Shown here piece by piece: positions 2,237-32,147 of a stretch of 64,000 nt of DNA. Below the pieces are notes generated by a model, which was given only the letters and a program-made list of their open reading frames with translations, was not told where the DNA came from and searched no databases. The DNA comes from Klebsiella phage KP2025. Position 1 is the first letter of the stretch. Each line of letters opens with the position of its first letter. A program made the position numbers and the translations under genes. The DNA lies in sequence record PP919962.1; one strand, written 5' to 3'.

Positions 2237-3364
2237 GTGGCACATACATATTTAGCTGACGTAGACTTTTCGGGTAAAGCTACGGAAGACTCATGCGGAG
2301 CGCACATCGCATATACCTTCGATTTCCAAGGTGGTGCAGCTTCTGGTTTTAATACCCCTCTATTATTTAAGTCTGGTGATAAACCAGATATCAGTTTAGA
2401 AAAACTGAAAGCTCTAGAAGATATGGGCGAAGACGTTACTGAATTACGCAAATCCTATTTCGGACAGTTAATGACTCTCCTGAATGAAGCCGTTCGTGAA
2501 AAATACGAAATGGGTTGGGATTGGGTATATGTTGTTGATGCTGATTTCGATAACGGTATTGTTATTTTCTGTAGTGATTACGGAATGTTCTCTACTGATT
2601 TTACTATTAACGGACTACTTGTAGAAGTAGGTGACGTTGCAAATCCAGTAGTTCAGACAACAGATTACCAAGTAGTTGAAGGTGATGTTTTAGTATCTGT
2701 AGACTTCTTTGATAACTTAATTGATGATGCTTTAGGTAGCCTTGTTAAAGGTGCTTTAAAACATACACATGTTAAAGATTATCTGGTGAAAGCTCATTCA
2801 GCTCGCACCAATAACAACTCTGTGATTGCAGAGGATCACCCAGCAGAAGACAATAAACAATCATCTGCAAACACAAATGAACTAAATAAAGGAGATACCC
2901 CTTTGGATAATATTAACAAAGAAGAATTCCTGAAATCTGCTGAATTCCAAGATCTGATTAAAGCCCAGATTGCAGAAGCAGTAGAAAAAGCAGCCGCTGA
3001 TGCTAAAGCTCAGGCTCAGGCTGAAGCTCAGGAAGAAATTCAAAAAGCACGTGCTCAGGCTGAAGAACTATTAAAAGCAGAAGCCGCTCGTATCGAAAAT
3101 GACTACACTCTAGTTATCAAATCTTACGAATTCGTAGAAGAAGATAAAGTAGAAACTCTCGTAAAATATCTTATTGAAAATAACGAAGTTGCAGAAACTG
3201 TAGTTAAAGCTTTCAGTAAAGCTCGTGAAGAAATTGAAGCAGTTAAGAAAGAGTTTGGCAAAGAGATTGGGGTAGAAGCTTCTAATCCTGAACTGGTTGC
3301 TAAAAGTGCTTCTGAACTCATTCAGCAAAAAGCTAACCTTCTGAAACAACACGCCCAGAAATAA
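2237..3364 (+). CDS. capsid scaffolding-like protein
   Basis: 375 aa; C-terminal Ala/Gln/Glu-rich coiled coil (AQAQAEAQEEIQKARAQAEELLKAEAAR); position before decoration/MCP; GTG start. Confidence 0.4.
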   Translation: MAHTYLADVDFSGKATEDSCGAHIAYTFDFQGGAASGFNTPLLFKSGDKPDISLEKLKALEDMGEDVTELRKSYFGQLMTLLNEAVREKYEMGWDWVYVVDADFDNGIVIFCSDYGMFSTDFTINGLLVEVGDVANPVVQTTDYQVVEGDVLVSVDFFDNLIDDALGSLVKGALKHTHVKDYLVKAHSARTNNNSVIAEDHPAEDNKQSSANTNELNKGDTPLDNINKEEFLKSAEFQDLIKAQIAEAVEKAAADAKAQAQAEAQEEIQKARAQAEELLKAEAARIENDYTLVIKSYEFVEEDKVETLVKYLIENNEVAETVVKAFSKAREEIEAVKKEFGKEIGVEASNPELVAKSASELIQQKANLLKQHAQK

Positions 3365-3382
3365 TCTTAGGAGATTTAATTA

Positions 3383-3775
3383 ATGGCAACAGGAATTACA
3401 TTACAAAACTACCGCCAGGAATTCGGATTCCTAGTTCTGGGTGGTGTATTTAGCTCTGACCTTGGACATTGCGTTCGTGAAATCAACCTTGTTAAAACTG
3501 CTACCATGCGTATCGGTTCTGTACTTGGTGCAGATAACACTGAAGCTGCAAGCGCTGCTGATGCTGTAAAAGTTCTACTTTGGACTGATGCACTATTCAG
3601 TATTGATGATGTAGCAGTTGGTGAAACATTTACAGCAGTTGTTGGTGTTCGCGATCTAACTCTTAACCGTTTTGCAGTTTATTACAGCAATGGTTCTCTG
3701 ATTGACGATGCTGGTGTCGCCGCTCTCGAAACTCATGATCTGAAACTGACTGAAAAAGTCGTTTTCACTTCTTAA
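3383..3775 (+). CDS. head decoration protein (gpD-like, putative)
   Basis: 130-aa ORF directly upstream of major capsid gene, lambda D/E-like arrangement. Confidence 0.35.
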   Translation: MATGITLQNYRQEFGFLVLGGVFSSDLGHCVREINLVKTATMRIGSVLGADNTEAASAADAVKVLLWTDALFSIDDVAVGETFTAVVGVRDLTLNRFAVYYSNGSLIDDAGVAALETHDLKLTEKVVFTS

Positions 3776-28547: not shown

Positions 28548-29138
28548 TTAGTGTGTCCAAGGTTTTCGGTCGATAACATGCTGGAGCATACTCAACCCCA
28601 TAGTTTTCAGATGCGGAACCACTCTTTCTGATTCAGTGTTAAAGAACTCTTGCAGTTTTAACATCTTGGCTCGTAGCCAACAGATATGTGCGTCGAGTTC
28701 TGTTTCAAAACGTCCAAGTGTAATATTTTTTCGTCCTTCGCCTTGGATAACTGCTTTATATTTTTTACGATCTTTCTCGTAAGAACATCCGGCTAATTTA
28801 CCTTGTTTCTTTTGGTAGGACAAAAACTTGTTCAGTTCGGGGGAAATCATCAGACAAGTGGAGGGAGAATATACTCTACCACCGATGATATCTTTGTCAA
28901 GTTCTAAGTTCTCCCAATTGTCCCAGGTTTGTAACCAAGCATAGAAGTTGGAAAATGTCTTCCATTCTTCGCAAACTTCTACATCCTCGTAGCAAGGATC
29001 ACGAGCAAGTTGATAAGGGGCGTAACATCGCCCCAACATAACCATCCACTTAATGTAGTGAGGAGTCATTTGTTTGCTGTTCGGGAGAGTACACTCACCT
29101 TTCAAGTCGTTAATGCCCTCACCATAAACTTTTCGCAT
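28548..29138 (-). CDS. free-standing AP2-domain DNA-binding protein, probable homing endonuclease
   Basis: C-terminal KKYKAVIQGEGRKNITLGRFETELDAHICWLRAKMLKL resembles the AP2 domain fused to phage HNH/homing endonucleases; sits immediately downstream of intron-containing pol gene. Confidence 0.35.
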   Translation of the reverse strand: MRKVYGEGINDLKGECTLPNSKQMTPHYIKWMVMLGRCYAPYQLARDPCYEDVEVCEEWKTFSNFYAWLQTWDNWENLELDKDIIGGRVYSPSTCLMISPELNKFLSYQKKQGKLAGCSYEKDRKKYKAVIQGEGRKNITLGRFETELDAHICWLRAKMLKLQEFFNTESERVVPHLKTMGLSMLQHVIDRKPWTH

Positions 29139-29165: not shown

Positions 29166-29972
29166 TCAATGACAGCTAGCCCAAGAGTTGCCAACATCGT
29201 AACCTGCGGTTAATTCAACGTTCAAATTATAGAATTCCCCAGCTTTCTTAACAGCGAGTGATGCTAATTCTCCAGGACGACTATAAGCGGTAAACCAGCC
29301 TCCTTTAGGAGATTCATGAACGTTCGCCCAAATTTTTCCTGTTCGCGCCTCTTCTTCTTCTTTCCATGCGTTAACTTTAGCCACACACTCTTTGTCTATT
29401 TTTTCCTGTTCTTTTTCATCATGCACTTGAGTCCACCCAAGGGATTCTTTAGAGAACCATTTAAACTCAACAAGATCGCGAGTGACTTCCAGTTGGGCTT
29501 CATCATGATAAGCAATCATTTGTTGCACGAATGATTTATTTTTCCAGTCATCAACGAAGAAGTCAACAGCTAAACCTTCTTCTTCAATAAGGTCATCGTA
29601 AATCACCATTGCACGTTTAGCGCAAATAACCCCGCCGCTTTGAAATAGTGAATTCAGGATAGCATGTGGTGAACGAGTTGGAACTTTACGCCCATCAATA
29701 CCCAGAATGTATTTCTTACCTGTCTTCACCCAAAAATCATGCAGACGTTCTTTCAACAATGCCAGAGGTTTAGCAGCTTCCCAAAATGCATCATAAACCA
29801 TTTGTCCAGTATACATATCGCTACCAATTGTCTTGGCAACTTTAGGAGCTTGAGCACCATATGTGATACCATACTTGACATTCTTAGCAGGCCCACGGTC
29901 AAACTTACGTCCAATTACGTCGCTAATACGCTTAGCCATCATAGAGTGAACATCGTGCGGCTTCTCTAGCAA
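29166..29972 (-). CDS. DNA polymerase family A, C-terminal part (exon 2; real exon 2 inferred to begin at about 30026; ORF-track start is a TTG)
   Basis: motif B GRKFDRGPAKNVKYGITYG (RxxxKxxxYGxxYG) and motif C MIAYHDEAQLEV (HDE); in-frame extension upstream of 29972 to 30068 continues the Pol A O-helix-proximal sequence. Confidence 0.7.
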   Translation of the reverse strand: MLEKPHDVHSMMAKRISDVIGRKFDRGPAKNVKYGITYGAQAPKVAKTIGSDMYTGQMVYDAFWEAAKPLALLKERLHDFWVKTGKKYILGIDGRKVPTRSPHAILNSLFQSGGVICAKRAMVIYDDLIEEEGLAVDFFVDDWKNKSFVQQMIAYHDEAQLEVTRDLVEFKWFSKESLGWTQVHDEKEQEKIDKECVAKVNAWKEEEEARTGKIWANVHESPKGGWFTAYSRPGELASLAVKKAGEFYNLNVELTAGYDVGNSWASCH

Positions 29973-30026
29973 GAGAGCGTTGCAATACTCGTGTGGTTCA
30001 GCCTCATAACGCCAGCAGTAATGGCT

Positions 30027-30437
30027 CTCTATTTTTGCTTCTACCTTATGTTCAGAGGTGGTCGTTAATCACCCCCCGCGCCGTTATGCGCAGCCTATAC
30101 TTTCATATAGGAGCAGACTATATCATCACCTTTCAGTGCTTACTGCTTCGGATCACTTGATCCTACTCCCTTCCGGGATAGTCGTTGAACTTTCTACTCA
30201 TCACCAATCATAATGTTGAGATATTACTTTCCAATCTCATAAATCTGATAAGCGGGGAAACCTTCTATATTTTTCTTTTGCATATCACCTCCGACTATGG
30301 TGGTGATGAGTAGCTTAGCTGCTGATTACCCATCACTATCTTGACATTTTTTAACATTCACGCCCGATGTTACCACCCACGTTTTAGTATGTCAAGCTTT
30401 AGGGCTTCCCAGCAATTCAATAAGTTTTACATTCGCT
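30027..30437 (-). ncRNA. group I intron (ORF-less, about 411 nt) interrupting the DNA polymerase A gene near motif A; boundaries inferred
   Basis: no ORF in 445-bp gap between pol halves; R element GTTCAACGACTA (RC of 30179-30190) and S element GATATAGTC (RC of 30116-30124) can pair GACTA/TAGTC to form P7; proposed 5' exon ends in U (ACG ATT|) and intron ends in G (..ATAGAG|AGC), restoring ...GYDFDSLTI|SHYCWRYEAEPHEYCNALLEKPHDVH..., collinear with T7 gp5 DASGLELRCLAHFMARFDNGEYAHEILNGDIH. Confidence 0.6.
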
Positions 30438-32147
30438 AATCGTTAACGAATCAAAATCATAACCAATCTGAAAATAATAAGGCACTTCTACACCAAACAA
30501 GTTGCGCATTTCATGACCGTATAAAGAGGTTACACGAGGGATGTTAGCGACGAGCCTATGCTTCATGCGACTTGTAGCAGCATCACATGTCGCAGCAGGT
30601 GTAGGAATACGCCCATCAGAGCGCACCGCAGCAAGATAACCTTTCTCGTAATCTTCCTCGTCTTCATCCCATTCCGCACCGCCTCCAAGGATAGAGTTCC
30701 TGCGGTGTTTAAATGTCAGGTATTCTACGATTTGAGTAGCATATGGGAATTTCTCCCCTAATTCAACCAAGTTAGGGCAAATATCTTTTTCCTGTCCTTT
30801 AGTAAACGATGGATTAGTTAGTACCTTAAGACCACGCCCTTTACCTTTCTCTATACGATCTCGGATCTTCCATTCTAAGGTTTCCGGGGTACAATCCAGA
30901 TGTTCACAACGATCAGCACAAAAATTAGATGCTAGGGTTTGTTCTACATAATCCTTAATACCTTTTTCTAATTGTTCAGGCGTTTTCTTAATCTTAGTAC
31001 CAGATTTAAGGGTTAAATCTTTATCTTTGTACTCAGATGGACTCCACCCTAACCCTACTAACCAATCTTTAATATGGGTAGTATCATCCAGTGTTGCCGG
31101 AACGTAAGGATCACAAATAGGCTCTTCACTTGAAATAGGGAGTAAAAACTCTTTACCTAATGCAATAAGATAATAATCCTCTTCTCTCTTAACAATTTCC
31201 CCGCCATGTTTTTCTGCAAATTTAAGAATATTACTAGTGGGTTCACCATTCTTCTTAAACTGAAGTTTAGGAGGGATAAAAGCTTTTAAATATCCCTTTG
31301 TTGCAGGTTTTGGTGGAAGGATTGGTTCTGCCTGTAGCCTACGTTCTTCCATCTTCTGATCTAAATCTGCAATATTGTCTTCCGCTTGTTTCTTGTTGAA
31401 AGCAAATCCACGGTGTTCCTGACGAGTAATAATATCTGCAACACGTTGTTCTAGTGCAAAAGGTTCAGCCCATTTATCATAGTCTCCCCATTCATCCATA
31501 AGATATTTATATACTGCGGTGTTAGATTTGTTATCGTAAATACAGTAATAAAGCATGTCTGCTGCAAATGTTTTAAACCTGTCCTGTTCAGGAATATTCT
31601 TACGAAAATCAATCTTAACATCGCCGCCTGCCTTACTGGATAATTCAGCAAGACTATGACCACCAAAGCGATCAGGGTTTAATACCTTACTTAAAATCAT
31701 GGTATCACAAATTTCTACCGGGGAATTCCCCCAAGTATTATATTTGACACTATAATTTATTTTGAACCAAAGTTTAATAGCTAATAAGTCAAAGTTGATT
31801 ATATTGTGTCCTACAACTTTTGTGATTTTATATTTTTCCTTATTAGTAAATTTACCTGTGCCATTAATAAAATCAGGAAAATCATTTAAAGGGAAATGGG
31901 TGTATTCCTGATGTTGATATTCCTCCAAACGATATTCATATTTTCCATCAGTTTCTACATAAGGACGACCATCAAAAACATACTTATCTCCATCATGAAA
32001 GGCAATAATTTCCCCTGTTTCATGACTTTCACATACAATACAATGCATGTCAAAACTATCTTTTAGTCGATAAGGGCTTGACAGGTAATCCACACTCTCA
32101 TCATTTAATAAGTTATTACTTTCAATGTCGAAAGTGAATGCTCCCAT
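30417..32147 (-). CDS. DNA polymerase family A, N-terminal part (3'-5' exonuclease domain plus start of polymerase domain; exon 1 inferred to end at about 30438)
   Basis: Exo I FTFDIESNN, Exo II VVGHNIINFDL, Exo III YYCIYD; C-terminal GYDFDSL aligns with Pol A motif A (DxSxxE) before the reading frame runs into intron sequence. Confidence 0.7.
   Translation of the reverse strand: MGAFTFDIESNNLLNDESVDYLSSPYRLKDSFDMHCIVCESHETGEIIAFHDGDKYVFDGRPYVETDGKYEYRLEEYQHQEYTHFPLNDFPDFINGTGKFTNKEKYKITKVVGHNIINFDLLAIKLWFKINYSVKYNTWGNSPVEICDTMILSKVLNPDRFGGHSLAELSSKAGGDVKIDFRKNIPEQDRFKTFAADMLYYCIYDNKSNTAVYKYLMDEWGDYDKWAEPFALEQRVADIITRQEHRGFAFNKKQAEDNIADLDQKMEERRLQAEPILPPKPATKGYLKAFIPPKLQFKKNGEPTSNILKFAEKHGGEIVKREEDYYLIALGKEFLLPISSEEPICDPYVPATLDDTTHIKDWLVGLGWSPSEYKDKDLTLKSGTKIKKTPEQLEKGIKDYVEQTLASNFCADRCEHLDCTPETLEWKIRDRIEKGKGRGLKVLTNPSFTKGQEKDICPNLVELGEKFPYATQIVEYLTFKHRRNSILGGGAEWDEDEEDYEKGYLAAVRSDGRIPTPAATCDAATSRMKHRLVANIPRVTSLYGHEMRNLFGVEVPYYFQIGYDFDSLTISECKTY

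Follow-up and report, generated by a model that had tools for sequence, protein, structure and literature searches.

The family-A DNA polymerase gene of a 145-kb myovirus-type Klebsiella phage is split within motif A by a group I intron of 402 nt. We hold the following explanation, taken as a whole, with high confidence: the intron would be spliced out of the transcript to give a single polymerase of 859 aa, it has probably lost a homing endonuclease gene of its own, and it probably reached this site by homing or recombination. A preliminary description, made from the sequence letters, had proposed that a group I intron splits the gene at this motif, and the RNA family match (RF00028, 61.6 bits), the intron-less genes of relatives, the covariation of the fold and the alignment with the T7 enzyme all bear it out.

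The list of ORFs in the window (the whole stretch of DNA analysed here, 64,000 nt) contains two polymerase ORFs on the minus strand that are 444 nt apart. The upstream one (30417..32147) encodes 576 aa ending in ...GYDFDSLTISECKTY before the stop codon, with a weak Pfam match to the 3'-5' exonuclease domain (DNA_pol_A_exo1), and the downstream one (29166..29972) encodes 268 aa from a TTG start codon and matches Pfam DNA_pol_A over profile positions 181-346 of 381. The gap between them gives the sole Rfam match at the gathering threshold in the entire 64-kb window: Intron_gpI (RF00028), whose gathering score is 50 bits, is matched at 30455..30094 (minus strand, E 3.4e-13) over model positions 1-253 of 253. 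The gap is a real group I intron, beyond chance. Both ORFs lie where they had been described earlier, and the R and S elements that had been predicted to pair in P7 are present (GTTCAACGACTA and GATATAGTC); in the alignment they fall on the conserved J6/7-P7 and J8/7-P7 positions of the model.

We searched the region by megablast against 50,697 phage genomes. The nearest relatives are the Klebsiella phages KP13-26 (95.7%), phi1_175008 (95.1%) and FKP3 (91%), all members of the Stephanstirmvirinae, and their matches come in pieces, with a span in the record that is 402 nt less than in the query. In each of them the polymerase is encoded by one CDS, exactly 2580 nt long, which reads ...GATTTTGATTCGT|TAGAAGCAAAAATAGA... 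across the site (protein ...GYDFDSLEAKIESHYCWRYE...), i.e., GATTCGT|TAGAAGC at the junction. Joining the exons of the window gives the same length (1702 + 878 = 2580 nt, 859 aa), and all three relatives have 859-aa polymerases collinear with the spliced product, the one of KP13-26 at 98.3% protein identity. The two computational checks put forward in the preliminary description, an Rfam search of the gap and a comparison with intron-less polymerase genes of related phages, have both come out in favour of the intron. The label "DNA polymerase, part I" carried by E. coli relatives does not point to further split genes: these are intact (859 aa) and the name is a transferred label.

By itself, the comparison with intron-less genes permits three placements of the intron, because the intron and exon 2 both begin with UA. 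The 5' exon would end in U or A in these placements (in A in the third), and only 30445..30044 ends the intron in G. In the Rfam alignment, P1 is formed by AUUCGUUAA (30451..30443) pairing with UUAGCGAAU (30439..30431), and its single wobble, U30446•G30436, sits at the conserved U•G of the model, which places the end of the 5' exon at U30446. At the other end, G30044 is the only downstream G that keeps both the frame and motif A (...CAUAAGG|UAGAAGC); it is the last base of the intron, the ωG, and once the intron is removed the host gene is continuous again. The final base of exon 1 is the first base of a Leu codon, i.e., a phase-1 interruption, and the spliced junction GATTCGT|TAGAAGC encodes ...DFDSLEAKIESHYCW (GYDFDS-L-EAKIESHYCW), the spliced peptide across the junction being DFDSLEAKIESHY. 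Exon 2 contributes the remainder of motif A, followed by motifs B and C, and its product aligns without a break with residues 437-641 of T7 gp5.

Table 1. Exons, intron and predicted RNA elements of the interrupted polymerase gene. For intron nucleotide n, the window position is 30446 − n.
Feature	Window position	Strand	Intron nt	Remarks
Exon 1, family-A DNA polymerase gene	30446..32147	-		ATG at 32147; last base T30446
Exon 2, polymerase gene	29166..30043	-		begins TA GAA GCA AAA; stop 29168..29166
Divergence tract in exon 2	29844..30028	-		+16 to +200 nt from junction
Group I intron	30044..30445	-		402 nt; begins UAACGAUUAGCGAAU..., ends ...CAUAAGG
P1	30431..30451	-	exon −6..−1 + 1-3 with 7-15	9 bp; last six exon bases AUUCGU and intron UAA pair with guide UUAGCGAAU (30439..30431)
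5' strands of P3 and P4, and P5-P5a-P5b-P5c arm	30328..30424	-		
P3	30424..30418 (5' strand), 30145..30139 (3' strand)	-	22-28 with 301-307	
P4	30414..30409 (5' strand)	-	32-37 with 121-126	
P5-P5a-P5b-P5c arm	30405..30328	-		extended, capped by GUAA tetraloop
P5			41-44 with 115-118	
P5a			50-57 with 99-106	
P5b			64-67 with 83-86	
P5c			69-72 with 77-80	GUAA loop
P6 and P6a	30189..30319	-		enclose 94-nt loop
P6			127-128 with 256-257	2 bp
P6a	30313..30301 with 30206..30194	-	133-145 with 240-252	perfect 13-bp stem
Stub ORF	30224..30283	-		19 codons; ATG..., MQKKNIEGFPAYQIYEIGK then stop; preceded by GGAGGTGAT (Shine-Dalgarno)
3' half of catalytic core	30116..30190	-		Rfam alignment, covariation
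R element and P7 5' strand	30190..30179	-		GTTCAACGACTA
P7			263-267 with 326-330	
P7.1	30178..30167	-	268-271 with 276-279	UCCC-GGAA-GGGA, then GUA
P7.2	30163..30150	-	283-287 with 292-296	GGAUC-AAGU-GAUCC
P8	30138..30127	-	308-311 with 316-319	
S element and P7 3' strand	30124..30116	-		GATATAGTC
P9, P9.1, P9.2 and tail	30044..30111	-		11-nt tail UGAACAUAAGG ends in the terminal G
P9	30111..30094	-	335-341 with 346-352	GAAA loop
P9.1	30093..30076	-	353-358 with 365-370	
P9.2	30075..30055	-	371-376 with 386-391	
ωG	G30044	-	402	

The features for two-step, guanosine-initiated splicing are all present: a guide with its U•G, the P3-P8 and P4-P6 domains, P7 and the ωG. The transcribed intron would fold into the P1-P9.2 core and its guide would pair with the last six exon bases, the U30446•G30436 wobble marking the 5' splice site. 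An external guanosine would attack there, and the freed exon end would then attack after the terminal G30044, joining the exons in a single 859-aa frame; a short P10 may form between the UAG of exon 2 and the UUA of the guide. Ribosomes translating the transcript before splicing would meet a UGA stop codon at intron nt 27-29, within the 5' strand of P3. Splicing itself we infer from these features of the sequence and from the need of a lytic phage for its polymerase.

The predicted fold is unusually stable (minimum free energy of −124.2 kcal/mol vs −96.8 ± 4.9 in shuffles; z = −5.6), and the minimum-energy fold recovers most of the proposed hairpins. To analyse covariation, we compared four introns (those of the window, KIL4, W70 and phiA009) after removal of the P6a loops, with the structure read from one of them. 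In the proposed structure, 93.6% of the cells are paired and double (compensatory) changes occur in 46 of the 93 pairs, whereas controls in which the 3' partners were slid by 1-3 columns have 36-41% of cells paired and only 5-10 pairs with double changes. None of 500 shuffles reached the observed values. Double changes are found in six of the eight P1 pairs, where the guides of KIL4 and W70 vary in step with the differing exons of these introns, in five of the eight pairs of P5b/P5c, and in P9 (4/7), P9.1 (5/6) and P9.2 (5/6); P4 and P7 are invariant across the four introns and are uninformative in this respect. The covariation supports the proposed core fold, including the P3/P7 pseudoknot, with an effect size that leaves little doubt. 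The P2 positions of the Rfam model are deleted in the intron. In the IA2 introns of ΦI, W31 and Pf-WMP3, P7.1 and P7.2 are linked by GUA and P2 is missing (PMC3428280); by this criterion, the P7.1-GUA-P7.2 arrangement and the absence of P2 fit subgroup IA2, and we regard the intron as IA2-like. The 9-nt loop of P9.2, AUUAACGAC (its position given as window 30377..30385), holds UUAACGA, a 7-nt string that is also found across the 5' splice site, as U|UAACGA (30445..30439, minus strand). KIL4 shares the core of this loop, UAACGAC, and W70 and phiA009 share part of it.

The position of the intron in the enzyme can be read from solved structures of T7 DNA polymerase. The spliced motif A aligns without gaps to T7 gp5 D475-R482 (QIGYDFDSLEAKIESHY with QAGIDASGLELRCLAHF, the Asp being D475 when counted from the start of the alignment), so that the codon interrupted in phase 1 corresponds to L479 and the motif A Glu aligns with E480. 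We take T7 D475 and E480 to be the motif A residues D705 and E710 of E. coli Pol I, which would make the interrupted Leu equivalent to I709. The published intron sites in phage family-A polymerase genes are, in E. coli numbering, 674 (SPO1, SP82, Bastille and Pf-WMP3), 676 (phiL7) and 881 (ΦI and W31) (PMC3428280), and the Leu codon of motif A is different from all of these. Among the 770 phage records with a homologue of the polymerase, we inspected a spread sample of 60: the interrupted polymerases among them are of two kinds, an in-frame insertion and a Pakpunavirus-like group I intron, and none of the 60 is interrupted at the motif A Leu codon. Our literature search found no earlier description of this insertion site and no report of introns in polymerase genes of the Stephanstirmvirinae. 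Phage introns of this type are familiar, as is the kind of gene that hosts this one; the site is new.

The in-frame insertion occurs in the E. coli phages PD211, 118_SA_NWU and vB_EcoM_01. It is about 250 aa long, starts at ESHY|CVPMD... and lies 8 codons downstream of the intron site of the window (at about 2547..3300 of locus L009 in 118_SA_NWU; locus L008 in PD211). It is probably an intein, with a weak match to Pfam Intein_splicing that falls below the cutoff. The intron and the probable intein of sister phages target the same motif.

Scans of IMG/VR and GTDB genomes for the junction and guide pattern gave no second copy of the intron at the motif A site, and the same scan of JGI metagenomes returned three matches, in unrelated sequence that holds no Rfam intron. 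An exact look-up of the 576-aa product of the exon-1 ORF in public assemblies found no record. With the family-level seed TAAAACTTWTTGAATTGCTGG, IMG/VR yielded 12 related introns, all with other guides and in other genes.

The intron had been called ORF-less, and in the functional sense this holds: it has no intact homing endonuclease ORF and no sense-strand ORF of at least 40 aa. What the term misses is that a Shine-Dalgarno sequence survives in the 94-nt loop of P6a, together with a 19-codon stub that is probably a remnant of an HNH gene. The same position in the loop is occupied by full HNH genes in the related introns of phiA009 (225 aa) and W70 (183 aa), whose proteins belong to phrog_59 and match Pfam HNH_3. 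The segment FPAYQIYEIG of the stub resembles YPNYKIYEEG of the phiA009 protein (92 of 20,000 shuffles score as well, p about 0.005), and it is at this segment that the phiA009 endonuclease begins to match I-HmuI (1U3E, E 1.8e-9), the endonuclease of the SPO1 polymerase intron, of solved structure. The similarity to the W70 endonuclease is not significant in a permutation test, the stub peptide, which is too short, has no match in Pfam, PHROGs or PDB, and the DNA of the P6a loop alone has no match among phage genomes, which gave no parent with the endonuclease gene. We consider with moderate confidence that the stub is what a deletion left of an I-HmuI-type HNH homing endonuclease gene, once carried in the P6a loop with the ribosome-binding site that still precedes the 19 codons. 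With its endonuclease gene so reduced, the intron would now be unable to home by itself. The nrdB intron of KIL4 also has, at the same place in the P6a loop (L005 2150..2209), an AGGAGG followed by a 19-codon ORF (MRKFHPIFTRYSTDIDGNV and stop); the two stubs share length and position, and their peptides are barely similar.

The exon sequence next to the intron bears on how it was acquired. A tract in exon 2 (Table 1) has 33 mismatches in 185 nt relative to KP13-26, with 8 amino-acid changes, against about 3.5% elsewhere in the spliced gene. The same differences appear against phi1_175008 and FKP3, and over most of the stretch the three relatives agree among themselves; the best database match of the tract is to these same relatives, at only 84-86%. 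This suggests co-conversion during homing from a distant, unsampled donor, in which the arriving intron would have dragged along about 185 nt of donor exon. The tract could also result from ordinary mosaic recombination that had nothing to do with the intron, since smaller divergent patches specific to the window are present elsewhere in the polymerase gene.

A free-standing HNH gene (28548..29138, minus strand; 196 aa, phrog_953 with E 3e-64, no Pfam match) begins 28 nt after the stop codon of the polymerase. The gene could be thought to mobilise the ORF-less intron in trans, in a collaborative homing in which the intron protects its own genome from the endonuclease. There are documented precedents in T4-like phages and cyanophages, where free-standing endonucleases mobilise ORF-less or defunct introns in this way (PMC3984707, PMC2790892), and the HNH gene both adjoins the polymerase gene here and is missing from the same spot in the intron-less KP13-26 and phi1_175008. 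In FKP3, an HNH gene lies directly upstream of the polymerase gene instead. We nevertheless consider this scenario unlikely. Many E. coli Justusliebigvirus relatives with an intron-less polymerase gene encode an orthologue of the HNH protein (62-69% aa identity) in this position, and the 40 nt on either side of the insertion site are identical in VEcB, which has the gene, and outra, which lacks it, so that the presence of the HNH gene is uncorrelated with change at the insertion site. Neither the distribution of the gene nor the comparison of the sites supports a link with the intron. A more ambitious proposal would make motif A (T7 L479, Pol I I709) an unrecorded homing site, at which the intron recently arrived with its tract of ~185 nt from an unsampled phage and where it may be trans-mobilised by the adjoining HNH gene. 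We hold this to be unlikely; if it were true, this segment of the polymerase would be an arena in which the intron, the probable intein found 8 codons downstream in E. coli relatives and endonucleases compete.

A truly split polymerase, in which the two ORFs are translated separately into two subunits and the RNA between them is the relic of a dead intron, is highly improbable. Both ORFs are intact as listed, and gene callers have annotated the interrupted polymerases of Pakpunavirus-like phages as two genes. Against this, it is catalytic motif A that is interrupted; the upstream ORF extends into the intron by 10 codons, as far as a UGA, and TTG 29972, the first start available to the downstream ORF, comes only after the motif A residues SHYCW, with no Shine-Dalgarno sequence ahead of it. 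The intron core is complete, scores above a curated threshold and has kept its pairings, and the closest relatives have one gene, i.e., the split is not conserved. The preliminary description had also judged two subunits the less likely reading.

Its boundaries fared differently. It had placed the same intron at 30437..30027, with a junction ACGATT|...ATAGAG|AGC (30438|30026) and a product ...DFDSLTISHYCW (DSLTISHY); these limits are off by 8 nt at the 5' end and 17 nt at the 3' end of the element, which occupies 30044..30445. We give this version hardly any credence: it does preserve the frame, an exon end in U and an intron end in G, but the Rfam P1 pairs U30446 and not U30438 with the guide G, the DNA of homologues reads GATTCGT|TAGAAGC, and the product lacks EAKIE, and with it the Glu aligned to T7 E480, and is 3 aa shorter than every intron-less homologue. 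An intein at this site is excluded by stop codons in all three sense frames of the insert.

An excised intron corrects the annotation of the region, with one 859-aa polymerase instead of two fragments and an exact exon junction, where gene callers otherwise give a truncated "DNA polymerase" and a hypothetical protein. It adds a fourth insertion point to those of introns in phage family-A polymerase genes (a fifth if one counts the Pakpunavirus site). The site is within the metal-binding motif A, in keeping with the rule that the codons targeted by introns and inteins are the most conserved ones; the understanding of such elements is otherwise unchanged by it. Together with its intron-less sister phages, the phage may offer a natural example of the late homing cycle, with the endonuclease decayed, the ribozyme intact and the exon tract marked.

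Among known systems, the introns of ΦI, W31 and Pf-WMP3 are alike in many respects: they are group I introns in a phage family-A polymerase gene, have no P2 and show the P7.1-GUA-P7.2 arrangement, start with UAA, and place an endonuclease of the HNH-type lineage in the P6a loop. They differ in position (881 in ΦI and W31, 674 in Pf-WMP3, as opposed to I709) and in having intact endonuclease genes where the window intron has only a 19-codon stub. The introns of SPO1, SP82 and Bastille (I-HmuI, I-HmuII and I-BasI) and of phiL7 also reside in the polymerase gene and have nicking endonucleases of the HNH type, and the stub resembles the N-terminus of an I-HmuI-type protein indirectly, via the phiA009 protein. 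Their sites (674 and 676) are some 35 codons upstream, their endonucleases are functional and their phages infect Gram-positive bacteria or Xanthomonas. Pakpunavirus-like Pseudomonas phages carry a group I intron in the orthologous polymerase gene (about 52% aa identity), which in bmx-p3 (L011 2677..2939; Rfam 73 bits) is ORF-less and in IQPL (L010 about 2736..3469) contains an ORF for an "endonuclease VII". These introns lie ~60 codons downstream (query aa 626-628, in the motif B region) and are of another lineage by sequence; in the records, each of the two exons is annotated as a polymerase gene of its own.

By sequence, the closest relative is an intron that resides in the ribonucleotide reductase β gene of the Pseudomonas phages vB_PsyM_KIL1-5 (70% identity over 92% of the intron). 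It has the same helices, P9.1/9.2 and the P5a-c arm among them, and the Shine-Dalgarno sequence and 19-codon stub in the P6a loop; it differs in host gene and phage, and its guide is a different one that matches its own exon. Further related introns, with an HNH gene in the P6a loop, are those of Escherichia phage W70 (in a primase/helicase gene) and Aeromonas phage phiA009. In both phages, Rfam detects a second compact group I intron near the one with the endonuclease gene (L007 3491..3770, 90 bits, in phiA009; L004 1576..1841, 70 bits, in W70), and these multi-intron genes are annotated only as hypothetical proteins or gene fragments. The nrdB intron of T4, with its defunct I-TevIII, is likewise a phage group I intron with a decayed endonuclease gene and is consistent with the homing-cycle model. 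The T4 intron retains a sizeable truncated ORF and its trans-mobilisation by MobE was shown experimentally, whereas the intron of the window keeps 19 codons.
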